Source: Dickeya solani IPO 2222 (GTDB lineage: Bacteria; Pseudomonadota; Gammaproteobacteria; Enterobacterales; Enterobacteriaceae). Taken from it: 32,000 nucleotides of DNA. Below the pieces are notes generated by a model. That model ran no database searches, was not told where the DNA came from, and was given only the letters and a program-made list of their open reading frames with translations. Shown in pieces: positions 8,281 to 22,077 of the stretch; within the stretch, counting starts at the first letter, position 1; each line of letters starts with the position of its first letter. The DNA is taken from positions 1,320,001-1,352,000 of the forward strand of contig NZ_CP015137.1 of assembly GCF_001644705.1 (NCBI RefSeq), given 5' to 3'. The translations under genes and the position numbers were made by a program.

Positions 8281-8307
8281 CGGGTTCCGAATCAAGCCTA
8301 GATTCAC

Positions 8308-8346
8308 AAACCCCGCCGGCGCAAGCCGAGCGGGGTTTCTTTTTTC
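8308..8346 (+). terminator. ilvBN attenuator (rho-independent terminator after the leader peptide)
   Basis: AAACCCCGC (8308-8316) pairs with GCGGGGTTT (8330-8338) and is followed by CTTTTTTCC. It lies 28 nt after the ivbL stop and about 40 nt before the ilvB ATG. Confidence 0.8.
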
Positions 8347-8387
8347 CACCCTCCCCGCTCCTCCTGACACCGGTTCTGATAAAGGAT

Positions 8388-10058
8388 ATGACTATGCGTT
8401 ATACAGGAGCTGAGCTGATCATCCGTCTGCTGGAGCAGCAAGGCATTACCACAGTGACCGGTATTCCAGGCGGCGCGGCGCTGCCGCTGTACGATGCGTT
8501 GGGGAAAAGCCGCACCATTCGCCACGTACTCGCCCGCCATGAACAGGGGGCTGGATTCATCGCACAGGGTATGGCGCGCGCCAGCGGTAAGGCAGCGGTT
8601 TGCATGGCGTCCAGCGGTCCCGGCGCCACCAACCTGCTCACCGCCATCGCCGACGCCAAACTCGACTCTATTCCGTTGGTGTGTATCACCGGCCAGGTGC
8701 CGTCCGGCATGATCGGCACCGATGCCTTTCAGGAAGTGGACACCTACGGCATCTCGATTCCGGTCACCAAGCACAACTATCTGGTGCGCGACATCAGCGA
8801 GCTGCCGCAGGTGATCAATGACGCCTTCCGACTGGCGCAGTCCGGTCGCCCCGGCCCGGTCTGGGTGGACATTCCCAAAGACGTACAAACGGCCACCATC
8901 GAGCTGGCGGAACTGCCCGCACCGGCAGCGCTGTCCCCGGCCCCTGTCATCGACGCCGACGCCCTGCGCGCCGCCGCCGCCATGATCAATCAGGCCAAAC
9001 GACCGATCCTGTATCTGGGCGGCGGCATCATCAGCGCCGGCGCGCATCGGCAGGCTATCGAGCTGGCGGAACGCGCCGGGCTGCCCACCACCATGACGTT
9101 GATGGCGCTGGGCGCCATGCCGGTGGATCACCCGCTGTCGCTCGGCATGCTCGGCATGCATGCCGCTCGCTACACCAATATGATCCTGCAGCAGTCGGAC
9201 TTGTTGATCGTGCTGGGCGCCCGCTTTGACGATCGCGCTATCGGCAAAGCGGAAGAATTCTGCCCGGATGCCCGCGTGATCCATATCGATATCGATCCAG
9301 CGGAGTTCGGCAAGATTCGCCAGCCGCACGTGGCGCTTCACGCCGATGTGGCTCAGGCGTTGGATCAGTTGCTGCCGCTGGTCGACCATCAGCCGCGCGC
9401 TGACTGGCTCGCCCAGGCGCGCGCCCTGCAACGCGATTTCCCGTTCAGCATGCCCAACGCCGACGATCCGCTCAGCCATTACGGGTTGATCCGCGCCGTG
9501 GCCGAGCAACTGGACGATCAGGCCATCATTACCACCGATGTGGGCCAGCACCAGATGTGGGTAGCGCAGGCGTATCCGCTGCGGCGCTCGCGTCAGTGGC
9601 TGACCTCCGGCGGTTTCGGCACCATGGGTTTTGGCGTGCCCGCGGCTATCGGCGCCGCACTGGCGGAACCGCAGCGCACCGTGGTCTGCTTTTCCGGCGA
9701 CGGCAGCCTGATGATGAACATTCAGGAAATGGCCACCGCCGTGGAAGAGAACCTGAACGTAAAAATCGTGCTGATGAACAACCAGTCGCTGGGGCTGGTG
9801 CACCAGCAGCAGGATCTGTTCTACCAGCAGAATTTTGTGGCCTCCGACTACCGCTATCAGACCAACTTTCTGGCGATTGCCGCCGGATTCGGCTTCGCCA
9901 CTTGCGATCTGAACGCCGCTGAAAACCCGCAAGCCGCCCTGCGCGACGCCCTGCAACAACCCGGCCCGGCGTTAATTCACGCCGCTATCGATATCAACGA
10001 AAAAGTGTTCCCGATGGTACCGCCGGGTGCCGCCAACATTGAGATGATTGGAGATTAA
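8388..10058 (+). CDS. ilvB: Acetolactate synthase I (AHAS I) large subunit
   Basis: ..YTGAELIIRLLEQQGITTVTGIPGG..LPLYDAL...ARHEQGAGFIAQGMAR...GPGATNL.TAIADA.LDSIPL.CITGQVP..MIGTDAFQE.DTYGISIP.TKHNYLV is colinear with E. coli IlvB through to PMVPPGAAN.EM.G. Confidence 0.9.
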   Translation: MTMRYTGAELIIRLLEQQGITTVTGIPGGAALPLYDALGKSRTIRHVLARHEQGAGFIAQGMARASGKAAVCMASSGPGATNLLTAIADAKLDSIPLVCITGQVPSGMIGTDAFQEVDTYGISIPVTKHNYLVRDISELPQVINDAFRLAQSGRPGPVWVDIPKDVQTATIELAELPAPAALSPAPVIDADALRAAAAMINQAKRPILYLGGGIISAGAHRQAIELAERAGLPTTMTLMALGAMPVDHPLSLGMLGMHAARYTNMILQQSDLLIVLGARFDDRAIGKAEEFCPDARVIHIDIDPAEFGKIRQPHVALHADVAQALDQLLPLVDHQPRADWLAQARALQRDFPFSMPNADDPLSHYGLIRAVAEQLDDQAIITTDVGQHQMWVAQAYPLRRSRQWLTSGGFGTMGFGVPAAIGAALAEPQRTVVCFSGDGSLMMNIQEMATAVEENLNVKIVLMNNQSLGLVHQQQDLFYQQNFVASDYRYQTNFLAIAAGFGFATCDLNAAENPQAALRDALQQPGPALIHAAIDINEKVFPMVPPGAANIEMIGD

Positions 10059-10061
10059 CTC

Positions 10062-10355
10062 ATGCAGACCCCATCCATTACCGCACAGGTCACGCTGGAA
10101 CTCTCGGTACGCAACCACCCGGGCGTGATGTCGCACGTGTGCGGGCTATTCGCCCGCCGCGCTTTCAACGTGGAAGGCATCATGTGTATGCCGCTGCCGG
10201 GCAACGAGCAAAGCCGCATCTGGCTACTGGTGAAAGACGACCAGCGCTTGCCGCAGATGATCAGTCAGGTGGAAAAGCTGGAAGACGTGCTGCAGGTGAC
10301 TCGCCACGGCGAAGAGATGCATATCTTTGATCAGGTGGCTGAGTTTTACCGCTGA
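10062..10355 (+). CDS. ilvN: Acetolactate synthase I small (regulatory) subunit
   Basis: The 97-aa product [33 protein letters not shown]...[24 protein letters not shown] matches E. coli IlvN (96 aa). It starts 3 nt after ilvB. Confidence 0.9.
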
Positions 10356-10362
10356 ACCGCAG

Positions 10363-10389
10363 GGGCCATACCGCCCCCCGGTATGGCCC
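10363..10389. terminator. GC-rich hairpin between convergent ilvN and yabI (possible bidirectional terminator, no clear U-run)
   Basis: GGGCCATACCG (10363-10373), loop CCCCC, CGGTATGGCCC (10379-10389): a perfect 11-bp stem. Confidence 0.45.
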
Positions 10390-10400
10390 TCGATCCAAAC

Positions 10401-11168
10401 TCAGCCATTCAGAATTTGCCACAGCAGGCGACGGTACACCGGCATCAACGGATGCTGCCACAACTGCCACAGACTAACGGCGGCGATAACCGACACCAGC
10501 GGCGCCAGCCAGTACAAACGCGAAGCCGTCAACCCACCGGTTGATTCGGCTTTGGCTCCACGACGGGCACGCCACAGGCGCCACACCAGCCAGCCAGCCC
10601 CCCACAGCAAGATAGCCGTGATTAACAGCAGCCACTTGAAACTGCCGCTGTCGGCCTGCTTGGGGATATCGATCGCCACGCCGGCCAGAATGCCGGGCAG
10701 CAGATAAACCGGCGGCCAGGTGAGACAGCCGATGATATTCGGCAACGCAAAGCGCCGGGGCGACAACTCCAGCATCCCCGCCACCATCGGGATCAGCGGA
10801 CGAGTCGGGCCAAAAAACCGCCCAATCAGAATGGTCGCCATATTATGCTGATGCAGCATTTTTTCGGTGCGATACAGGTAAGCTCGGTGCTTTTGCAGGA
10901 ACGACCAGTTATGCAGCCGGTCCTTGAAACGCCAGCCGATAAAATAGGAAATCCAGTCTCCCAGCAGGCAACCGATGATGCCCATGCCCCAGGCCGGATA
11001 CAGCCCCATATTGCCGCTGCCGATCAACGCCCCCAACGACGCCATCATCAGCGTGCCGGGCAACAGCAGCCCCACCAACGCCAGTGACTCCAGAAACGCC
11101 ACCAGCAGTACCGCCGTCAGCGACCAGGCTAACGATTGTGTGATCAGATGCTCCAGCCAGGCTTCCAT
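10401..11168 (-). CDS. yabI: DedA-family inner membrane protein YabI
   Basis: MEAWLEHLITQS...VAFLESLALVGLLLPGT..MA.LGALIGSG...GDWISYFIGWRFK...GRFFGPTRPLIPMVAGML...NIIGCLTWPP.YLLPGILAG.AIDIP is colinear with E. coli YabI. Confidence 0.85.
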   Translation of the reverse strand: MEAWLEHLITQSLAWSLTAVLLVAFLESLALVGLLLPGTLMMASLGALIGSGNMGLYPAWGMGIIGCLLGDWISYFIGWRFKDRLHNWSFLQKHRAYLYRTEKMLHQHNMATILIGRFFGPTRPLIPMVAGMLELSPRRFALPNIIGCLTWPPVYLLPGILAGVAIDIPKQADSGSFKWLLLITAILLWGAGWLVWRLWRARRGAKAESTGGLTASRLYWLAPLVSVIAAVSLWQLWQHPLMPVYRRLLWQILNG

Positions 11169-11429
11169 AAATCTCTACATTTCTGCTTTTTTATGAACAA
11201 AGATAACGGGATGATAGCAGGAAACGGTGGGAATATGGCAGATAGTAGTAAAAGCGCGGCTGACGCGAGGTTAACCATTACTGGACAGCTACGTCCTTGA
11301 AGCAGCAACATTTTGTTGTTATAAAAGCATCACTTTAAGAAAATAAATGGATTGACTCATGTAAGAAGCGAGGATTGCTTTTCCTGTTGGCACATTGCGG
11401 AACAACAGAGTTAAGTTAGGGTAAACAAT

Positions 11430-11996
11430 ATGAAAAAAATAGCACATGCTTCGCTGTTAATAGCGCTATTGGTATCATTACAAGCCTATGCATCTATTAA
11501 TTTAATCAAGAATGAGGATAAAACCCTATCAAGTGAAGTAATAAAATATGGAAATAAAAAAGGGCTAGTTGATATAAAACCCCAGAGCGATCAGAGCTTT
11601 GACATTATTGACGACGGGAAATACATAGGAACAATCATTCCAGCCAAAGGATTTCATAAAAACTATTACCCACTGTGCTTTATTGGTTGGTCAACTGATA
11701 AAAAAACAATATCAAAAATCATCCTATCAATAGGGCAAGGATATTTTGAACTTTCCCTCTGTTCAAAACTTGATGCAATAGGAAAAATAGAGGAAAAGGG
11801 AAGAACCTTTATTGGCTTTGTATACACTGTAGGGTTGAGAGACAGATATGCTCAAAACTACTTTCTCATTGAGCTTAATAGAGAAAAAAGAACTATAGAA
11901 GATAAAAGTCAACTCATTGAAAAATTTCAAAATGATTCAGAAAAAAAGAGCATAGCTGATCTTAGAAGAGATATAAAGAAAATTGATGAGAAATAG
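11430..11996 (+). CDS. Secreted (SPase I signal peptide) protein of unknown function, paralog 1 of a tandem pair
   Basis: MKKIAHASLLIALLVSLQAYA|SI is signal-peptide-like. The C-terminal ~125 aa are about 60-65% identical, by eye, to the next ORF (shared PLCFIGWS, SIGQG.FE, IGFVYTVGLRDR, NYFLIEL). AT-rich codon usage. I recognise no family. Confidence 0.6.
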   Translation: MKKIAHASLLIALLVSLQAYASINLIKNEDKTLSSEVIKYGNKKGLVDIKPQSDQSFDIIDDGKYIGTIIPAKGFHKNYYPLCFIGWSTDKKTISKIILSIGQGYFELSLCSKLDAIGKIEEKGRTFIGFVYTVGLRDRYAQNYFLIELNREKRTIEDKSQLIEKFQNDSEKKSIADLRRDIKKIDEK

Positions 11997-11998
11997 CA

Positions 11999-12556
11999 AT
12001 GAAGAGAATATTGGCAATAATAACATTATCAATGTCACTTCAAGCGCATGCATCAATTACGTTGACGCCGATTGATAGCAGCAATCTATTATTGCAGCTG
12101 TCGATAAAAACACAACCCTTGGGAATAGACCAGATAAAAATAGATAATGGACAATCTTTTGACATTACTGAAAACGGTAAATATCTAGGCACACTAATCC
12201 CTGCCGAGGGTTATTATAGAAAATACAATCCGCTATGCTTTATTGGTTGGTCTATAGACAAAAAAGAAATCAGTAATATTGTTCCATCTATTGGTCAGGG
12301 TGATTTCGAAAGCTCAATCTGCCTAAGTCTCGATGCTGTTGGGAAAATAGAAGTAAAAGAAAAAACATATATAGGATTTGTTTATACAGTTGGATTAAGA
12401 GACAGACGAGCTAAAAACTATTTTTTGATTGAGTTAGATAAAGATAAAATAACGATCGCAGATAAAAGTGCACTTGTCGATAGTCTACAAAATAATAGTG
12501 ATGAAAAAAGCATTGTAATGCTCAGGAAATATTTCTCTCAAAACATCTCACGTTAA
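11999..12556 (+). CDS. Secreted protein of unknown function, paralog 2 of the tandem pair
   Basis: MKRILAIITLSMSLQAHA|SI is signal-peptide-like. It starts 2 nt after the paralog-1 stop (operon). Conserved blocks are as for paralog 1, including two conserved Cys. Confidence 0.6.
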   Translation: MKRILAIITLSMSLQAHASITLTPIDSSNLLLQLSIKTQPLGIDQIKIDNGQSFDITENGKYLGTLIPAEGYYRKYNPLCFIGWSIDKKEISNIVPSIGQGDFESSICLSLDAVGKIEVKEKTYIGFVYTVGLRDRRAKNYFLIELDKDKITIADKSALVDSLQNNSDEKSIVMLRKYFSQNISR

Positions 12557-12602
12557 TCCAGACGTACCATTAATTATAAATCCAGCAGGAAAATAGAGGG
12601 AA

Positions 12603-12989
12603 TTATAACAGCAATTCAAAATAAGTAGCATTATCTTCACGATTAACGGAAAGCACAATAAATTTATTTTTATCTGGCGATTCCCATACCTCTCGGTAAC
12701 CATCATCCATATTGAGCGTAAACTTCAATAATTTCAAATAGTTCCTTAACGTCTCAATATCGGTGGTATTTTCAAAATATATACCAGTGACCTGCTTCCC
12801 AGGCCCTTCAGCATCGCCGTGTTTAATTTGATATTTTTGAGATATTTTTGGTGCATTTATTATTATTGGATCAGTTAAACTACTATTATCCGAAGAAGAA
12901 AATTGATGCTCTAATCCGCTATTGGAAATAATAAAATAAGCGATTGGCACACCTAAGACGAAAAAAATAATTATCATTTTCTTTCTCAT
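12603..12989 (-). CDS. Small membrane-anchored or secreted protein; candidate immunity protein for the upstream putative effector
   Basis: The N-terminus MRKKMIIIFFVLGVPIAYFIISNS is a hydrophobic anchor or signal, followed by a Ser-rich linker and a ~90-aa domain. Its ATG (12989-12987) directly abuts the TAA (12992-12990) of the upstream gene, indicating translational coupling. The position matches the usual effector-immunity gene order. Confidence 0.5.
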   Translation of the reverse strand: MRKKMIIIFFVLGVPIAYFIISNSGLEHQFSSSDNSSLTDPIIINAPKISQKYQIKHGDAEGPGKQVTGIYFENTTDIETLRNYLKLLKFTLNMDDGYREVWESPDKNKFIVLSVNREDNATYFELLL

Positions 12990-13691
12990 TTAATCACCAT
13001 TAAAGAAGTTATTATGTATTTCACTACCATCCTCTACTGCAATACCAACTTTATCTGATGTGGAACGAGAGTACGGTTTTATAGTTAACATAAACGATGG
13101 TAAAAAACCTAAGTATGGTCTAACATTTGGATTCTTATCTGGATCAGGAAATAACATCGGCCTGAATGTTTTATTTTTAAATGAACCAATGGGACCATAA
13201 AAATCCCATCGTCTCAAAGCATCCTCTTTACTCACTGGCTTTAATTCAGGAAAGTAATTTTTATTATATATAGCCCTATAAAAACCTAGTAAATCAGATA
13301 CTAAATCTTCACCACTAAATCCACTATCGGTGATAGCACTGAAAGGGAATGAATCCTGCAAATTTTCAAATCGACAAGCTACTTTCATCATCATGGCAAG
13401 AGCAATACTATATCTTTCATATAAAGTAGTCCCTTTTTTTATTCTCCAAACAACATATTTAGATATTCCAATATTTTTTTTGAATTTCCACATCCCTTGA
13501 AAATACTTAACATCATAGTATGGTTGACTTCCATTTTCACCTGCTTCGAACTGATTAAGCAAAGCTTTTATATCAAAGCCTTGAGCATGCCCCAAGTCAA
13601 CCCACCCTAAAACTTCTGTATATACTAAACCATAGCTTTTAAAAGTAGCTTCAGAGCCATTTAATATATCTGAGCGTTTACTCATAGTCAT
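12990..13691 (-). CDS. Hypothetical 233-aa protein; candidate Hcp-dependent T6SS effector of unknown activity
   Basis: It lies 34 nt downstream of an Hcp gene on the same strand and is followed by a coupled membrane-anchored ORF. It has no signal peptide or TM segment. I recognise no family motif: no HExxH, no exact GxSxG, a single Cys. Confidence 0.5.
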   Translation of the reverse strand: MTMSKRSDILNGSEATFKSYGLVYTEVLGWVDLGHAQGFDIKALLNQFEAGENGSQPYYDVKYFQGMWKFKKNIGISKYVVWRIKKGTTLYERYSIALAMMMKVACRFENLQDSFPFSAITDSGFSGEDLVSDLLGFYRAIYNKNYFPELKPVSKEDALRRWDFYGPIGSFKNKTFRPMLFPDPDKNPNVRPYLGFLPSFMLTIKPYSRSTSDKVGIAVEDGSEIHNNFFNGD

Positions 13692-13725
13692 CTCATTCCA
13701 TTGAAGTTGATATAATCAAATGATA

Positions 13726-14205
13726 CTACATTGTAGAATCTCTCCAAAACATATAAGAATTTGTGCGTGCAGCAACATTTTCCCACTCAATAGTATTGAA
13801 CTTAATAGAAATATTCTCACATGGCTGTATATCGTTATGCGTTAATGAATTTGGATAAAAACAGCTAATATTTGATATTATTGCGCCTAAAAGGTTTATC
13901 TTGAAATATAATTCAATCCCTCCAGAAATACTGGTTCTGAAAATGGAAAAATTACATGTCAGCGTTTCATTTTCATTTAATGCTTGGGATATTAATGGCG
14001 TGGCTTTATCTATTGGCTTTCGTACCTGAACAGGATGAAATGATATGTTTTCTTCACGCATAACATTAGTATTTAATTCATATATAAATATCTCATTCTC
14101 ATGCCCAGCCTGATACAGGTTCCCTATTGATGGAGCGGTAGAACATCCAGCTGATATAAGCCCTTGTTTTTCTCCATGAAGCGAAAGGTAAATAATGTTT
14201 GCCAT
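13726..14205 (-). CDS. hcp: Hcp (TssD) family type VI secretion tube/chaperone protein, orphan copy
   Basis: The 159-aa product MANIIYLSLHGEKQGLISAGCS..SIGN.YQ.GHE..I....L...V........H.P....KPIDKATPL...A...E.L...F.F.RTS..GG.ELY.KI.L..A.I......P......D.QP.E.I...N.IEW has the length and N-terminal pattern of Hcp1-family proteins (compare MANLIYLTLNGKQQGLISAGCST.. type sequences). No other T6SS core genes are in the window. Confidence 0.75.
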   Translation of the reverse strand: MANIIYLSLHGEKQGLISAGCSTAPSIGNLYQAGHENEIFIYELNTNVMREENISFHPVQVRKPIDKATPLISQALNENETLTCNFSIFRTSISGGIELYFKINLLGAIISNISCFYPNSLTHNDIQPCENISIKFNTIEWENVAARTNSYMFWRDSTM

Positions 14206-14371
14206 ATCAAGTCCCTGATTACATTAGTTTAGGTGTATAAAGCTACTAATCATTACAATTTATGTCAACGATAAATAAAAACCGGAATGTTCAGGCCTAA
14301 CACTGTCGTTATGCCCCTGAAAGGAGTTTTGCCTTTCTGAAAGAGAATCTCTAACTCGTTCGCTAAATATG

Positions 14372-14405
14372 AAAAAAGCCGATTACTCAGAGGCAGTCGG
14401 CTTTT
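14372..14405 (-). terminator. Rho-independent terminator downstream of the ABC-transporter operon (bidirectional appearance)
   Basis: The sequence is AAAAAAGCCGA-ttactcagaggcag-TCGGCTTTT: a stem flanked by an A-run and a T-run, about 55 nt after the last ATPase gene stop (14458). Confidence 0.7.
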
Positions 14406-14457
14406 CACATAATACTTTCACCTTAGCGTTTGATGAGCAAATTATCGCCATTTACGC

Positions 14458-15145
14458 TCATCCCCCCAAATACATCCGCTTCACCTCCGGATTGGCCAGA
14501 ATCTCCCGTGCCGGGCCGTGCAATACCATGCGGCCGTTTTCCAACACATAGGCGCGATCGGCAATTTTCAGCGCAGCGGTGGCGTTCTGCTCCACCAGCA
14601 GGATGGTGATGCCTTCCTTCTGCAACTGCTTGATGGTTGAGAATAATTCGCCCACCACTTTCGGCGCCAGTCCCAGGCTTGGTTCGTCCAGCATCAGTAG
14701 CACCGGTTCGCTCATCAGCGCGCGGGCGATAGCCAGCATCTGCTGCTCACCGCCGCTCATGGTGCCGGCCATCTGGCTGCGCCGCTCTTTGAGACGCGGG
14801 AACAGCGCGTACATTTTGTCGCGCAAGTAGGCAAAGTTAACCGGGTTGTTGTAAGCGCCCATGCGCAGGTTTTCTTCAATCGTCAGATTGGTGAACACCT
14901 TGCGCCCTTCCGGCACCAGCGCCAGCCCTTTACGGACGATCTGGTGCGTTGGGCTGTGGGAAATGTCCTCGTTGAGAAAACCGACCGTCCCGGTGGATTT
15001 CACCAGATTGATGATACCGTTGAGGGTTGAGGTTTTCCCGGCGCCGTTACTGCCGATCAGGGTGACGATTTCGCTGTTGTTCACTTCCAGATCGATGCCT
15101 TTCAGCCCCTGAATCAGCCCGTAAAACACTTGCAGATCGCGGGCG

Positions 15146-15153
<8 letters not shown>
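14458..15153 (-). CDS. HAAT-family (branched-chain amino acid type) ABC transporter ATP-binding protein, LivF-like
   Basis: GSNGAGKTSTL (Walker A), MSGGEQQMLAIARAL (signature), LLMLDEPSLGLAP (Walker B), and a C-terminal NPEVKRMYLG typical of LivF. Confidence 0.85.
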
Positions 15154-15914
<761 letters not shown>

Positions 15915-15925
<11 letters not shown>

Positions 15926-16958
15926 TCGCGCTTCTCCTGCGGATATCCCAGATTTCCTGCTTGCCCAGCAGCCCTTCGCGGGCGAACAGCATGATCACCA
16001 GCAGCACCAGTGAGAACACCACCATCCGCAGCCCTGGATGCGCCCCCAGATCCTGGCCGAACAACGTCAGCGGTTGATCGAGGAAACGCAGCCACTCGCC
16101 GCTGCCGATCACGATGATCGTGCCGAGAATGGCGCCGGTAGTGCTGCCCAGCCCGCCGAGTACAATGATGATCAGCAACTGGAAGGTCAGCATGAAGTCG
16201 AACAGATCCGGCGAGATGATCGTCAGCAACGACGCCAGCAGCCCGCCGCCGATGCCCTCGAAAAAGGCACTGGTGGCAAAGGCACAGGTTTTGATGCGAA
16301 AGGTATTGATGCCCATCGCAATCGCCGCGTCCTCATCGTCGCGCACCGCTTTCATGGCGCGGCCGTATTTGGAGTACACCAACTGTAGGATGAACAGCAC
16401 CGCCGCCAGCGCGATGAAACCGCACCAGTACAGAATGTGACTGACCTGCGGGATCTCGTTCAGACCGATGGCGCCGTTGGTGAATTGCGGGTTATTGATG
16501 GCGAAGATCTTGATGATGAAGCCGAACCCCAGTGTGACGATCGCCAGATAATCGCCGCGCACGCGGAATACCGGAAACGACAGGCACACCGCCACCGCCG
16601 CCGCGCATACGCCGCTGATGATCAGCGCCGGCAGAAACGACGCGTGCACCGCCAGAATCAGCGGGTTGGGCGCCGTCATCTCAAACATGTTGGTTTTGGC
16701 ATCCGCGCTCAGCAGCAGCAACGCCGTAATGTAAGCGCCGATCGCCACAAACCCGTTAGGCTCCAGAGACAGCTGCCCGGTCACGCCGTTAATCAGGTTA
16801 TAGCTGACCGCCAGAATCATAAAAATGAAGATGTTACAGAAGATACGCACGATATAGTCGTTAAACAGCGCATCCAGCCCGGTCAACGCCAGCAGGGCCA
16901 GCGCAAACACAGCGAGGTACCCCAGCCACATCGTCGGGGAAGTCTGCGGCATTCTCAT
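15915..16958 (-). CDS. HAAT-family ABC transporter permease, LivM-like
   Basis: A multi-TM 347-aa protein with LivM-like blocks (GQLSL....F..IGAY, RAMKAVRDDE.AA.AMGIN). Its ATG overlaps the upstream TGA (TGATG at 16960-16956). Confidence 0.8.
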
Positions 16959-17860
16959 CAGAAACGGCTCCTTTCCAGTCGTTCGTCGCCCATGATGCCT
17001 ACCGGCCTGAACAGCAACACCAGAATCAAAAACATGAAGGCAAAGGCGTCTTTATAGCCGCCCAGCTCCGGAAACAGCGCCACCGCCACCACTTCGGTAA
17101 AACCGAGGATAAAACCGCCGATCACCGCCCCGGTGACACTACCGATGCCGCCCAGTACCGCCGCGGCGAAGGCTTTCAGGCCGATCAATACCCCCATCAG
17201 CGGATCGATAGAGGGGTAGCTGATGGCGTAGAACACGCCGCCCAGCGCCGCCAGCGCGCTGCCGAGCGCGAACACGAAGGCGATGATCTGGTTGGCGTCG
17301 ATGCCCATCAGCCGCACAGTGTTGACGTCAAACGCCACCGCGCGGATCGCCATCCCCTGCCGGGTGCGATACAGAATGCACAGGATCACCGCCAGCAGCG
17401 CCAGCGTCATCAACGGTACGATCCAGGCCACATTGGTGACGACGATCGGCCCGAGATTGATGGTCTGATTAAAGAACGGCGGCGACTCGAAGTAGCGCGG
17501 GCTACCGCCGAACACCACATTGAACAGGTTCTCCAGAAAGAAACTGACGCCGATGGCGGTGATCAGCATCGAGATCTTCGATGCCTGCCTAAGCGGGCGG
17601 TAGGCGATTTGATCGATGCCGATCCCCAGCAGCGCGGCGATGAGAATGGCGAGGATCACGGCGGCCCCGAAAGGCAGCCCGAGGGAGGTGAAACCAAGCA
17701 GGGCCATAAAAGCCCCGACCATCATGATATCGGCATGAGCAAAGTTGATCAGCCGCAGCACGCCGTACACCATGGTGTAGCCGATGGCGATCAGCGCGTA
17801 CATGCTGCCAAGGCTCATGCCATTGACCACTTGCTGCAAGAAAACGGCAAGATCCATCAT
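16958..17860 (-). CDS. HAAT-family ABC transporter permease, LivH-like
   Basis: A 300-aa multi-TM protein with NG...GS.YALIAIGYTMVYGVLRLINFAH, MGID and KAFAAAVLGGIGS..GA.IGG motifs as in LivH. Confidence 0.8.
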   Translation of the reverse strand: MMDLAVFLQQVVNGMSLGSMYALIAIGYTMVYGVLRLINFAHADIMMVGAFMALLGFTSLGLPFGAAVILAILIAALLGIGIDQIAYRPLRQASKISMLITAIGVSFFLENLFNVVFGGSPRYFESPPFFNQTINLGPIVVTNVAWIVPLMTLALLAVILCILYRTRQGMAIRAVAFDVNTVRLMGIDANQIIAFVFALGSALAALGGVFYAISYPSIDPLMGVLIGLKAFAAAVLGGIGSVTGAVIGGFILGFTEVVAVALFPELGGYKDAFAFMFLILVLLFRPVGIMGDERLERSRF

Positions 17861-17987
17861 GTCATCCTTTACTGTTAGGCTGCGCCCCGCCTTGTTATTC
17901 GCGGATGTCGCTGGCGGCGATGGTTCCGCGCGGCAAGGCGCCAGCCGTTAAGTGTGGTAGACCAGACAAACGGCGGGGCAAAGCCGA

Positions 17988-19124
17988 TTACGGATTGATC
18001 ACCGTTTTAAACACCATTTCGCCGCCTTTCACTTCGTTGATCACCGCCGGACGAATGGCGTCGCCGTCTTTCAGGGTCAGGGTGCCGGTGATGCCGGTGA
18101 AGTTGCTGGTGGCGCGGATCGCCTTGTTGACGCAGACGCGATCGTGCGGATCGCTACAGGTGTTCATCGCATTGACGATCATCTTGTAAGCATCCGCCGT
18201 CATCGCTCCCCAGGTGTGGGTCGGTTCCTTATATTTGGCGGTCCAGGCTTTGATGAACTTTTCCCCTTCCGGCGTCTGCTCTTTGGCGTTCGGCGAGTAG
18301 TAATCGGTGGTCATCCACCCTTCCACCGCGTCCTGCCCCATTTTGAAGAACACCGGGTCCGCCGCCAAACCATCGCCGCCGACCACCGGCACCTTCAGCC
18401 CGAGCTGCTTGGCCTGCACGGCGATCAGCGCGCCTTCGGTGTAATAAATCGGCATGTAGATCACGTCCACATTGTGGGATTTGATGGTGGAGAGCTGGGC
18501 TTTGAAATCTTTGCTGCCGCCGGGCGCCTGCACTTCAATCGGAATGGTGCCGCCGTTTTTCAGGAACTGGGTGCGGAACGATTTGGCCAGCCCGACCGAG
18601 TAGTCGTTGCTGCTATCGAACATGATGGCGGCTTTCTTCGCCTTCAGGTCGCGGGTCGCCAGATTGGCGCCGACCACGCCCTGAAAACTGTCGGAGAAGC
18701 AGACGCGGCTGACGTACTCCTTGCCTTTGGTTACACGATCGTTGGTGGCGGTCGGCGAGACGATCGGGGTTTTGGTGTCTTCCGCCATCTTGGTCATCGC
18801 CATGGTATTGGTGGAGGTCACCTCGCCGATCACCGCATCCACTTTATCGCTGGATACCAGGCGCTGCATGGCGGTGGCCGCTTCCACCTTGTCGCTCTTG
18901 TCGTCAATCACCACCAGCTTGATGGTGTCGCCATTCTTCAGTTTGGTTTCGATACCGTTAATCAGCTCCAGTCCTTTCAGAGACGGCTGACCGTAACCGC
19001 TCAATGCACCGCTCAGGGGCAATACCACGCCAATCTTGATGTCATCCGCCCACGCCCCCACCGAAGCCAGTGAAGACGATACGGCTACCGCTGCGACAGT
19101 AAATCTGAAAAATTTGTTCTTCAT
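17988..19124 (-). CDS. HAAT-family periplasmic substrate-binding protein (Leu/Ile/Val-binding-protein fold)
   Basis: From ATG 19124 (GAAGAGG RBS): MKNKFFRFTVAAVAVSSSLASVGAWA|DDIKIGVVLPLSGALSGYG, a signal peptide plus a type-I PBP N-terminus typical of LivJ/K-like proteins. The ORF-track start at 19151 is probably too far upstream. Confidence 0.8.
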   Translation of the reverse strand: MKNKFFRFTVAAVAVSSSLASVGAWADDIKIGVVLPLSGALSGYGQPSLKGLELINGIETKLKNGDTIKLVVIDDKSDKVEAATAMQRLVSSDKVDAVIGEVTSTNTMAMTKMAEDTKTPIVSPTATNDRVTKGKEYVSRVCFSDSFQGVVGANLATRDLKAKKAAIMFDSSNDYSVGLAKSFRTQFLKNGGTIPIEVQAPGGSKDFKAQLSTIKSHNVDVIYMPIYYTEGALIAVQAKQLGLKVPVVGGDGLAADPVFFKMGQDAVEGWMTTDYYSPNAKEQTPEGEKFIKAWTAKYKEPTHTWGAMTADAYKMIVNAMNTCSDPHDRVCVNKAIRATSNFTGITGTLTLKDGDAIRPAVINEVKGGEMVFKTVINP

Positions 19125-19636
19125 GATCGCCTCTTCAAAAATAAAGATCACATTCCAGTCGTGAAATGACGCTGCATACAGGGTGATAAAAAGAAGATCT
19201 GTGTAACAGGGTTATCTGCTATTCATCAGGGAAGAGGCAGCAATAAATATGCCAAAAGCACGAGAACAATTAATGTATTAATAATCAAAACATAAAAGAA
19301 AAAAATATGAGTAATTCCCACATCCCGCAGAACCGCCTTTGACGGCCATGCACCAATTCATCACCGTGATGCATTTTATTAGTGCGAAAACGATATTAGT
19401 TTTCACAGGTAAATCAACCAATAGCAAAATATGCAATATGGGCGATCAGACGTTTCCCCATAAATGTATTATTCTCTGTCTATTATTTTTCAACACGCCG
19501 GCTTCAGCGATTATTTCTGGAATAGTTTCATTTTCATCGTTTTATTCTGAATGAAATACCGTCGGGTTAAATAAATAAACATTCCTAACAACGATGCAAC
19601 ATCGTGATCTGACAGCCACAATATGGAGAATGCAAC

Positions 19637-19704: not shown

Positions 19705-22077
19705 ATGACTCCTTCACCACCGCGTCAGGGATTCGTACTGACCCGCCATTGGCAGGACACGCCCGCCGGCATTCAGGTCGAATGCTGGCTGGCGACCGAT
19801 ACAGGCCCTTGCCGGGTCAGGTTATCGCCGCAGCAGGCGGTGGCGTTTGTGCCGATGCGTCATCAGGCACGGATTACCCAGTTGTTGAGCGGTGAAAGAC
19901 ACTGGCAATTGCGGCCGCTGGCGCTGAAAAACTTCCACCACGAGCCGCAACTCGGGCTCTACTGCCTGCAATACCGTCAATTGTTGCGTCTGGAAAAGAA
20001 ACTGCAGGAAGCGGGGATTCCGGTGTACGAGGCGGATATCCGCCCGCCGGAACGGTTTCTGATGGAACGCTTTATTACCGCTCCGGTCTGGTTCAGCGGC
20101 GAAGAAACCGCTGACGGCCTGATCGATCAGGTCAAGCTTAAGCCGGCGCCCGACTATCGTCCGCCGCTGAAAACCGTGTCGCTGGATATCGAAACCAGCC
20201 GTCACGGCGAGCTTTACTGTATCGGTCTGGAAGGCTGCGGCCAGCGTCAGGTATTTATGCTGGGGCCGGAGAACGGTAACGCCGACGATGCCGGCGACCT
20301 GACGCTGGAATACGTCGCCAGCCGCCCGCAACTGCTGGAAAAACTCAATCACTGGCTACAGACCTACGATCCGGATGTGATCATCGGCTGGAATCTGGTG
20401 CAGTTCGACCTGCGGGTACTGCAACAGCACGCCGAACGCTATCGCATTCCGCTACGGTTCGGGCGCGGCGGTCAGGAAATGGAGTGGCGCGAACACGGCT
20501 ACCGCCAGGGGCACTTTTTCGCCGGCGCGCCGGGTCGGCTGATCGTCGATGGCATCGAAGCGCTGAAGTCCGCCACCTGGAACTTCGCGTCGTTCAGCCT
20601 GGAGTTTGTCGCTCAGTCGCTGCTGGGCGAAGGCAAGGCCAGCGACAATCCCTACCAGCGGCTGGAAGAAATCGAACAACGCTTTCAACAAGACAAGCCG
20701 GCGCTGGCGCGCTACAACCTAAAAGACTGTGAACTGGTGACGCGCATCTTCGAGAAAACCCATCTGATGCCTTTTCTGCTGGAGCGCGCCAACGTGACCG
20801 GGCTGGCGGCGGACCGCAGCGGCGGCTCGGTGGCGGCGTTCACCCACCTTTACCTGCCGCGGATGCACCGGGCCGGATTCGTGGCGCCCAATCTCGGCGA
20901 AGTGCCGCCGGAAGCCAGCCCCGGCGGCTACGTGATGGATTCCCGCCCCGGTCTGTACGATTCGGTGCTGGTGCTGGACTACAAAAGCCTGTATCCCTCC
21001 ATCATCCGCACGTTTTTGATCGACCCGGTCGGCCTGGTAACCGGTTTGCAGCAACCGGATGAGCAACATTCGGTAGAGGGCTTTCGCGGCGCCTGGTTCT
21101 CCCGCCGCCACCATTGTCTGCCCGCCATCGTGGAAAGCATCTGGCATGAGCGCGACCTCGCCAAGCAGGAAAACAACAAGCCGTTGTCGCAGGCGTTGAA
21201 GATCATCATGAATGCGTTTTACGGCGTACTGGGGTCCAGCGGCTGCCGCTTTTTCGATCCGCGCCTCGCGTCCTCCATTACCCTGCGCGGTCACGACATC
21301 ATGCGCCAGACCCGCACCTTGATCGAAGCCAAAGGCTATCAGGTGATTTACGGCGATACCGACTCCACCTTCGTTTGGCTTAAACGCGCCCACAGTGAGG
21401 ACGACGCGAACATCATCGGTCATGAACTGGTGGCCTACATCAACGACTGGTGGCAACAGCATCTGCACCAGCAACACGGGCTGACCAGCGCGCTGGAGAT
21501 GGAGTACGAAACCCATTTTCACCGTTTTCTGATGCCCACCATTCGCGGCGCCGAACTGGGCAGCAAAAAACGCTACGCCGGCATGACCATTAACGCGCAA
21601 GGCGAGCAGATGGTGTTCAAAGGGCTGGAAACGGTACGTTCCGACTGGACGCCGCTGGCGCAGCAATTTCAGCAGCAGCTTTACCAGCGCATTTTTCACC
21701 GTGAATCGTATCAGGAGTGGGTGCGGGAGTACGTGGAAAAGACACTGAACGGCGAGCACGACGACCTGCTGGTGTACCGCAAGCGCCTGCGTCACAAACT
21801 GAGCGACTATCAGCGCAACGTGCCGCCGCAGGTACGCGCCGCCAGAATGGCCGACGACTACAACCGCCAGCATGACCGGCCGTTGCAGTACCAGAGCGGC
21901 GGCTGGATAAGCTACGTCATCACGGTGAATGGCCCGGAGCCGCTGGAAAATCGCCGCTCGCCGCTGGATTACAGTCACTACGTGGAAAAACAGCTACAAC
22001 CGGTAGCCGATGCTATTCTGCCTTTCATTCACGATGATTTTGCTACACTGGTTACCGGACAGATGGGGCTATTTTAG
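19705..22077 (+). CDS. polB: DNA polymerase II (family B)
   Basis: ..[21 protein letters not shown]...[21 protein letters not shown]...[19 protein letters not shown]...[16 protein letters not shown]...[10 protein letters not shown] is colinear with E. coli PolB. Confidence 0.95.

Follow-up and report, generated by a model that had tools for sequence, protein, structure and literature searches.

CapCone-1 is a toxin domain of the Lipocone superfamily that was defined computationally and assigned to the ClaspCone-CapCone-TelC clade (Burroughs, Nicastro, Aravind, eLife 2025, PMC12419801). The three CapCone families are marked by a Gly six residues before the helix-2 active-site His and by S/GxxSxx before the helix-4 Asp, and the published context network of CapCone-1 places PsbP/Mog1 downstream, HCP upstream (8), and RHS at the N-terminus (94) (PMC12419801). 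TelC, a lipid II phosphatase that acts outside the membrane and cuts lipid II between undecaprenol and the diphosphate, is the only biochemically characterised toxin of the superfamily. The locus described here is a ~3.3-kb AT-rich islet within a 32,000-nt stretch of the genome of Dickeya solani IPO 2222 (contig NZ_CP015137.1, positions 1,320,001 to 1,352,000; hereafter, the window), and it carries hcp followed by two genes named here D and C, which face a tandem pair named A and B. D. solani has a working type VI secretion system (T6SS), encoded elsewhere, which reduces the survival of P. atrosepticum ~1000-fold in a tssM-dependent manner, and hcp-vgrG-rhs loci are also found elsewhere in its genome. 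Protein D belongs to CapCone-1, a family membership that is solid as judged from sequence, and the islet is probably an auxiliary T6SS locus composed of one live effector module, hcp-D-C, and the remnant of a second.

The assignment of D to CapCone-1 is based on motifs, pairwise similarity, and profile scores. A search of 1.84 billion representative proteins identified 597 cluster representatives related to D at E <= 1e-3, and 484 homologs were found in Enterobacterales; identity to D was 92% in Dickeya, 64-69% in Pectobacterium, and ~55-60% in Yersinia, Serratia, Pantoea, Erwinia, and Enterobacter. The residues G29, W30, D32, G34, H35, E109, S123, S126, E128, and D129 are invariant in an alignment of 23 homologs. 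Both marks of the CapCone families are contained in D, as GWVDLGH (G29...H35) and SGFSGED (S123-x-x-S126-x-x-D129), and the H3 Glu of the CapCone-1 pattern corresponds to E109. Among the sequences deposited with PMC12419801, the D motifs GWVDLGHA and DSGFSGEDL are present solely in the CapCone-1 file. Comparison of D by blastp with six CapCone-1 members listed in that work gave 34-50% identity (E 1e-15 to 1e-41; 59-125 bits), and a hidden Markov model of the D family built here scored six published CapCone-1 sequences at 1e-43 to 1e-65. No Pfam or NCBIfam model matched the D protein of the window. The AlphaFold2 model of D (pLDDT 86.6, pTM 0.85) is of mixed alpha/beta composition; the protein is hydrophilic, no membrane helices are predicted in the model, and the N-terminus (MSKRSDI...) is without a hydrophobic segment. 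Without a signal peptide, D depends on a secretion machine for its exit from the cell. A structural-bioinformatics survey of T6SS effectors (Geller et al. 2024) leaves Dickeya, Pectobacterium, and Erwinia unmentioned, and the D family is not obviously covered by it.

The gene neighbourhoods of the family were assessed in a sample of 80 D-type loci from species-representative genomes, with Pfam annotation of the neighbouring genes except for large ones at some loci, which may encode VgrG or Rhs. A C homolog lies directly 3' of D in 79/80 loci, often with a 4-nt overlap, and hcp is adjacent to D in nine of the 80, from Pectobacterium, Brenneria, Pseudenterobacter, and Kalamiella. In three of the 597 relatives, the proteins P0311, P0303, and P0307, the D domain forms the C-terminal tip of an Rhs protein and begins immediately after the end of the Rhs core (DPxxx...GL). 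The contexts published for CapCone-1 (i.e., the C-type gene downstream, adjacency to hcp, and Rhs tips) were therefore reproduced independently. The G+C content of the cassette is more than 5 points under that of the flanks in 71/78 loci, and a genome may hold up to three D-C copies, which occupy many unrelated chromosomal sites. Altogether, the linkage of part of the family to hcp or Rhs and the absence of a signal peptide from D are what is expected of a T6SS cargo effector, and hcp-D-C quite likely encodes a T6SS cargo effector and its immunity protein, with the periplasm as the site of action.

Additional features of the D-C cassettes were noted. Genomes with three cassettes include P. versatile CFBP6051, S. 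plymuthica NBRC 102599, and E. tracheiphila. D-C is also plasmid-borne; the non-mobilizable, 2691-bp plasmid pJE05 of Erwinia sp. Ejp617 (L089) carries a D homolog at 1954-2658, a C homolog that extends across the origin to ~410, and little else, and the cassette may be either the only cargo of the plasmid or a stabilising module. The cassette recurs beside mfd in L006 and L009 (Yersinia), L022 (Serratia), and L024 and L027 (Pantoea), which suggests either that the site has long been occupied or that it is a hot spot for insertion. In Candidatus Pantoea formicae (L020), a second, truncated D homolog (18344-18993, minus strand), paired with a C homolog of its own, lies at a distance of 8 kb from the main cassette. 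The lone 'phage' match was to a 2-kb unannotated record and was disregarded. Finally, a Salmonella study flagged as a candidate effector an ORF with a DUF4056 domain, which is part of a bicistron within the SPI-6 T6SS cluster.

Protein C has the properties of an immunity protein. It diverges faster than D, with 14-30% identity across genera compared with 54-69% for D in the same genera, and a word-index search with C found few relatives (nine, all in Dickeya) because C evolves fast. A K/R-rich start followed by a hydrophobic helix was found in 83/86 C homologs, some Dickeya alleles carry a lipobox-type signal in place of the transmembrane (TM) helix, and a conserved Cys pair is present in many homologs; the anchor or lipobox and the Cys pair place the folded domain of C in the periplasm. 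Tandem copies of C occur in L001, L002, L007, and L046, and orphan copies of C without D are found in D. chrysanthemi Ech1591, D. dadantii, and D. zeae. C is read as the immunity protein because of its anchor, its tandem copies, and the orphan copies in Dickeya strains that lack D, and both its adjacency to D and its anchored product are in keeping with an immunity gene. From these sequence features, C appears to fit an immunity protein better than a transport adaptor.

The structural model of C is confident over residues 40-128 (pLDDT >87), and its secondary-structure elements are ordered beta-beta-alpha-beta-beta-beta-beta. A Foldseek search with this model gave DcrB, EagT6, MOG1, and PsbP as the best matches in the Protein Data Bank (PDB); these matches are mutually consistent and in line with the published PsbP/Mog1 label. 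Two candidate identities for C were rejected. A BamE-like fold, as in certain immunity proteins of Lipocone toxins, would be composed of a two-helix hairpin followed by three beta-strands, and the model topology is different; an Eag/DUF1795 chaperone identity was not borne out, as C had no Pfam match and nearly all of its homologs are anchored. In the alignment of C homologs, most members outside Dickeya and Pectobacterium share a C-x5-C-W Cys pair, which may form a periplasmic disulfide, and the C protein of the window is without this pair.

The other two genes of the islet, A and B, are explained by the loss of a second effector. A and B are 55% identical to each other and belong to a family that is confined to Dickeya; B is 84% identical to Dd1591_0572. 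At the sibling locus, the gene of a 283-aa PG_binding_1+Muramidase (PF11860) protein, which has no signal peptide, lies directly ahead of two or three A/B paralogs and faces hcp. The muramidase and its A/B paralogs were found in five loci (L081, L083, L084, L085, and L087), and carriers of the muramidase allele include D. chrysanthemi Ech1591, D. dadantii, D. zeae, and other strains labelled D. solani. A corresponds to the first post-muramidase gene of L083 at 90% DNA identity, and B to the second such gene. Window positions 10300-11410 match L083 3955-5065 at 97%, and the match then jumps to L083 5870, resuming at the first immunity gene. At 11359-~11415, a stub of ~55 bp lines up base for base with the beginning of the muramidase gene in L083, after which the alignment breaks off; codon 2 of the stub is TAA, ~800 bp are gone, and A now adjoins the scar. 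The stub with its stop codon and the position of the A/B paralogs after the sibling muramidase mark A and B as predicted orphan immunity genes, which stayed in place downstream of the old promoter when the effector gene was deleted. Consistent with immunity to a PF11860 effector, the members of this family are encoded downstream of the effector and have predicted periplasmic signal peptides.

The allelic history of the D-C side of the locus appears to mirror that of the A-B side. Those Dickeya species that keep the muramidase hold only an orphan C, without D. A recombination breakpoint lies inside C at approximately window position 12878 (window 12469-12989, compared with L085 5001-5527); the 3' 276 nt of C and the downstream spacer are 96.6% identical to the D. 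dadantii orphan C, whereas the 5' part, which encodes the N-terminal anchor, differs: the window has a TM helix where the orphan alleles carry a lipobox-type signal (..NVGAC). These comparisons suggest that the locus is a mosaic in which each lineage keeps immunity to a weapon that it no longer has. At the D. fangzhongdai locus (L082), an extra 237-aa gene with no precomputed Pfam family is located between C and B at 9334-10047, and this gene is missing from the window.

The gene at the head of the minus-strand operon encodes an Hcp/TssD protein, as both curated models of the family scored above their cut-offs. The product matched TIGR03344 over its full length (1.6e-49; 168 bits vs a cut-off of 58.9; residues 1-156, profile 1-166/167) and Pfam T6SS_HCP (PF05638; 1.5e-18; 67.8 bits vs a cut-off of 23.5), and it is 96% identical to the D. 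fangzhongdai ortholog that occupies the same site. A hairpin and T-run follow livF at ~14403-14371, and a TTGACA hexamer lies upstream of hcp at 14268-14263, both as read from the sequence; no consensus sigma-70 site was called in 14206-14457, and the sigma-70 and terminator scans scored no better than shuffled sequence. A preprint on SlyA and ArcZ in D. solani names an 'HcpD' that is lost in a slyA mutant.

The positions of the islet genes and their neighbours are given in Table 1. A sequence-only reading of this DNA had described an AT-rich islet at ~11290-14300, and the composition bears this out: G+C is 0.30-0.37 in all 300-nt windows from ~11300 to 14300, compared with 0.54-0.69 in the left flank and 0.56-0.63 in the right. 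The five ORFs form two convergent operons (A-B on the plus strand; hcp-D-C on the minus strand) with gaps of 34 nt between hcp and D and 0 nt, at a TAA/ATG junction, between D and C, as that reading had stated. The first gap needs a small revision; all D homologs begin at the third codon of the window ORF (MSKRS...), so the likelier D start is 13685, and the true protein probably has 231 aa and starts 40 nt after hcp. The islet had also been placed between yabI and polB, and this is right on the yabI side, but the right neighbour is a livKHMGF-like operon and polB is further on. The yabI flank is syntenic in every Dickeya locus examined, the livF flank is 98.8% identical to that of L083, and the corresponding islet of Ech1591 (D. 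chrysanthemi) directly adjoins polB. Mobility genes, vgrG, PAAR, and T6SS core genes were likewise not seen within the islet. A megablast search of the islet against complete E. coli genomes returned no match, and the PADLOC defence models matched none of the five islet proteins. Entries from D. solani match proteins A and C at 100% identity.

Table 1. Positions of the islet genes, their remnants, and the flanking genes within the 32,000-nt window.
Feature	Position	Strand	Description
ilvI	8388-10058		left flank, core
yabI-like DedA family gene	10401-11168	-	left flank, core genome; NF008102 DedA 2.5e-19
muramidase 5' remnant	11359-11415	+	PG_binding_1+Muramidase (PF11860) stub; upstream promoter region 11169-11358
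A	11430-11996	+	188 aa, Sec-type signal peptide (read from sequence)
B	11999-12556	+	185 aa, Sec-type signal peptide (read from sequence)
C	12603-12989	-	128 aa, N-terminal membrane anchor and periplasmic domain
D	12990-13691	-	233 aa as ORF, without signal peptide
hcp (tssD)	13726-14205	-	159 aa, heads minus-strand operon
hcp upstream region, islet right edge	14206-14457	-	hairpin and T-run after livF, TTGACA hexamer
livF-like ABC ATPase	14458-15153	-	right flank, core genome; NF008626 LivF 1.3e-80
livKHMGF-like ABC operon	14458-19151		livF-like gene is its last gene
polB	19705-22077		beyond livKHMGF-like operon

Several features of the flanks were also recorded. A 97-aa ORF at 10062-10355, beside ilvI, corresponds to the ACT-domain small subunit annotated in syntenic loci. 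The DedA protein encoded by yabI weakly resembles the undecaprenyl-phosphate transporter UptA (E 1.3e-8, far under the cut-off), and the proximity of yabI to a predicted lipid-carrier toxin is probably a coincidence. Long antisense ORFs (<=551 aa; e.g., 8304-9959 on the minus strand) overlap the well-supported ilvI, livG, and livM genes in the GC-rich flanks and look like compositional artefacts.

The fullest reading of these data is that D is a T6SS-delivered Lipocone enzyme that destroys a lipid-linked precursor, that C is its Mog1/PsbP-fold immunity protein, and that the islet is a product of reciprocal effector loss between siblings; as a whole, this reading is tentative and leaves considerable room for doubt, and a number of results weigh against its parts. 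With regard to the chemistry of D, a Foldseek search of the PDB with the D model gave no credible match (best E 0.43; YopH and CorA at TM <0.17) and did not return TelC, and PDB sequence searches with D alone and with a D profile gave nothing meaningful. An hhalign comparison of the D family, in a shallow version and in one broadened to 120 sequences, with 24 Prok-TelC sequences taken from the eLife supplement aligned no more than the 13-14 residues of the H4 motif, and not significantly (P ~0.1). Neither profile nor fold similarity to the TelC family was thus found for D, and the case for TelC-type chemistry accordingly depends on the published superfamily analysis, where moderate HHpred links of 66-88% attach CapCone-1 to the superfamily (PMC12419801). 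The window D did not match DUF4056 (PF13265) at E up to 10 (gathering threshold 23.6 bits); 21/23 D relatives match this model weakly, always at profile positions 61-186, and among six relatives scored singly, P0056 alone was above threshold, at 28.4 bits. The context published for CapCone-DUF4056, an OMP beta-barrel gene upstream, is absent from the D loci, and no experimental study of any CapCone-1 protein was found in the literature searched. A T6SS effector that cleaves no lipid head group, whether a pore-former of the Ssp4/Ssp6 kind or a peptidoglycan hydrolase, would account for the failure to reproduce direct homology to TelC here and would be in line with small Hcp-linked enterobacterial effectors whose immunity proteins are membrane-associated and which turned out to be pore-formers. 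This alternative is nevertheless improbable, because the invariant His, Glu, Ser, and Asp of D match the Lipocone active-site pattern, which is typical of an enzyme rather than of a pore-former, because D is hydrophilic with no membrane helix in its model, and because the immunity proteins of Ssp6 (67 aa, two TM helices) and Ssp4 (four TM helices) and the architectures of these pairs differ from those of C and D. Identity with Ssp6/Sip6 or Ssp4/Sip4 was rejected on the published descriptions alone, as C is a 128-aa protein with one anchor and D is a mixed alpha/beta protein with a catalytic-type motif.

The dependence of the module on the T6SS and the role of C are open to similar objections. 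About 70 of the 80 cassettes are surrounded by housekeeping genes, with no T6SS gene within 10 kb, and no sigma-54 -24/-12 element was found upstream of the islet hcp (14206-14457), although such elements were reported upstream of hcp modules in the D. solani SlyA/ArcZ preprint. These isolated cassettes, together with the 2.7-kb Erwinia plasmid that holds little beyond D and C and the proposal that other Lipocone families are intracellular antiviral effectors, would suit a D-C pair that works independently of the T6SS as a conflict or addiction module (e.g., in plasmid or islet stabilisation, as a stress- or phage-triggered membrane toxin, or by way of another export route), with the adjacent hcp being incidental. 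Rhs-tip fusions and the recurrent adjacency of hcp point instead to T6SS-type delivery, and the combination of a D without a signal peptide and a periplasmic partner fits delivery from outside; moreover, the PADLOC models recognised nothing in the islet, and validated Hcp-dependent effectors such as Ssp6 are likewise mostly unlinked, so that a T6SS-independent module is also improbable. As for C, the Mog1/PsbP-like fold is a weak match (E 0.012, TM 0.39), neither Pfam nor a PDB search with the C profile offered a match that would support this fold at the sequence level, and the label that PMC12419801 gives to the C-type partner is not that of an immunity protein but 'toxin effector transport mediating domain'. 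The text of that paper treats the PsbP/Mog1 domain as diagnostic for T6SS secretion, and the C model has EagT6 as one of its best structural matches; both would agree with C being an Eag/DUF1795 (Mog1/PsbP)-type adaptor or chaperone that loads D, with immunity absent or encoded elsewhere. However, the TM helix or lipobox of the C homologs should turn the domain towards the periplasm, many homologs have the conserved Cys pair, the best structural match, DcrB, is a periplasmic lipoprotein, orphan and tandem copies are the pattern of an immunity gene and not of a chaperone, and divergence is much faster than that of D. An adaptor role for C is accordingly very improbable.

Under the preferred reading, in which hcp-D-C is a T6SS effector-immunity module, the Hcp protein would serve as a spare tube subunit that carries D as cargo in its lumen. 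D would be a soluble CapCone-1 enzyme of ~26 kDa with a conserved His/Glu/Asp pocket, which would be fired into the periplasm of neighbouring cells and, once there, would target the phosphate-linked head group of a lipid at the inner membrane's outer face. Candidate targets are lipid II, another undecaprenyl-diphosphate-linked precursor (by analogy to TelC), or a phospholipid; whether D cleaves the head group of lipid II, of another such intermediate, or of a phospholipid is, by this analogy, close to an even call. C would be held in the inner membrane by its helix, or by a lipid anchor in some alleles, with its small domain facing the periplasm, where it would bind and neutralise incoming D in sibling cells. 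A and B, in turn, would shield D. solani from Dickeya strains that still fire the muramidase. In short, we infer that D is secreted by the T6SS in an Hcp-dependent manner, that it is toxic and acts on a substrate of this kind, and that C, A, and B neutralise their respective effectors.

These results support most of what the sequence-only reading had proposed for the proteins themselves. The 159-aa protein is an Hcp (TIGR03344 1.6e-49; T6SS_HCP 1.5e-18). The designation of the 233-aa protein as an effector is upheld as a prediction by the Rhs C-terminal tips, the low-G+C multi-copy cassettes, and the adjacency to hcp in 9/80 loci, and that of the 128-aa protein as a coupled, membrane-anchored immunity protein is upheld in the same sense by adjacency in 79/80 loci, fast evolution, and the orphan and tandem copies. 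The T6SS on which the module would depend was expected to be encoded elsewhere, and the literature shows that the T6SS of D. solani kills competitors. The secreted paralogs do have signal peptides and 55% identity to each other, but they can now be placed, as predicted orphan immunity genes of a deleted muramidase effector. The suggestion that the toxin-immunity system was previously undescribed does not survive, because D is a CapCone-1 protein and this family was published in 2025 with its PsbP/Mog1, HCP, and RHS contexts. The islet is a typical but informative bacterial warfare locus and no new kind of system.

CapCone-1 is a large family whose members are spread through Enterobacterales associated with plants, insects, and humans, among them Yersinia pestis, Serratia, Pantoea, and Enterobacter, and the D. 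solani islet is a compact, genetically tractable three-gene operon in a host whose T6SS is active under laboratory conditions. It offers a way to ask whether T6SS-delivered Lipocone toxins attack lipid carriers, whether their Mog1/PsbP-like partner is an immunity protein or an adaptor, and whether orphan immunity genes shape the coexistence of soft-rot species in infected tubers. If the proposal is true, the Lipocone (Wnt/SAA/TelC-related) superfamily would have in D its first testable enzyme with T6SS delivery, one that, inside the periplasm of Gram-negative rivals, destroys a lipid-linked precursor of the envelope (e.g., lipid II). The analysis also corrects the likely role of the CapCone-1 partner protein, and the locus is a clear example of effector loss with retention of immunity.

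Among known systems, the published CapCone-1 family (PMC12419801) is the closest to D, with which it shares 34-50% identity, the G-x5-H/Glu/SxxSxxD pattern, and the contexts of a downstream gene of Mog1/PsbP-like type, HCP upstream, and N-terminal RHS. That family was defined by computation only and its partner was labelled a transport domain, whereas the evidence here favours an immunity protein located in the periplasm; neither the locus in Dickeya nor the history of its alleles is described there. TelC-TipC of Streptococcus intermedius, a type VII secretion system (T7SS) pair, resembles D-C in superfamily and clade according to the published analysis and in the short H4 motif GEDxxxxDL, and D-C may be likened to it in that the site of toxin action is outside the cytoplasmic membrane and the immunity protein that neutralises the toxin is extracytoplasmic and tethered to the membrane; it differs in family, secretion system, and Gram-positive host, and no significant profile or fold match connects the two. 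The Mog1/PsbP fold of DcrB and the Eag (DUF1795) proteins provides the best matches to the C model, and DcrB, like the lipobox alleles of C, is a periplasmic lipoprotein; however, the similarity is weak (TM 0.39), and Eag chaperones are cytoplasmic, whereas C is membrane-anchored with a predicted exported domain.

Ssp6-Sip6 of Serratia marcescens, from an Hcp-dependent family of orphan T6SS effectors in Enterobacterales, is similar to D-C in combining a small effector that lacks a signal peptide with an immunity gene directly downstream, and also in its variable sites, its several copies per genome, and its occasional location near an orphan hcp or inside T6SS clusters; the effector, however, is of a different family and forms an ion-selective pore, and Sip6 (67 aa) contains two TM helices. 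Colicin M-like effectors of the T6SS, for example T6EC1 (Geller et al. 2024), work in the periplasm, where lipid II is the molecule that they are proposed to destroy, as may also be the case for D, but they have an unrelated ColM fold and are specialised C-terminal domains instead of Hcp cargo. For A, B, and the orphan C, the parallel is with the T6SS orphan immunity arrays of Vibrio cholerae, which, in the portion of PMC5361080 drawn on here, are described as sites where an effector was lost or replaced and its immunity genes were kept, which leaves the strains shielded from their relatives. Compared with that account, the loss in Dickeya looks reciprocal, with two effector modules at one hcp islet in different species, and the scar can be seen directly, as the 5' stub of an effector gene that contains a stop codon.

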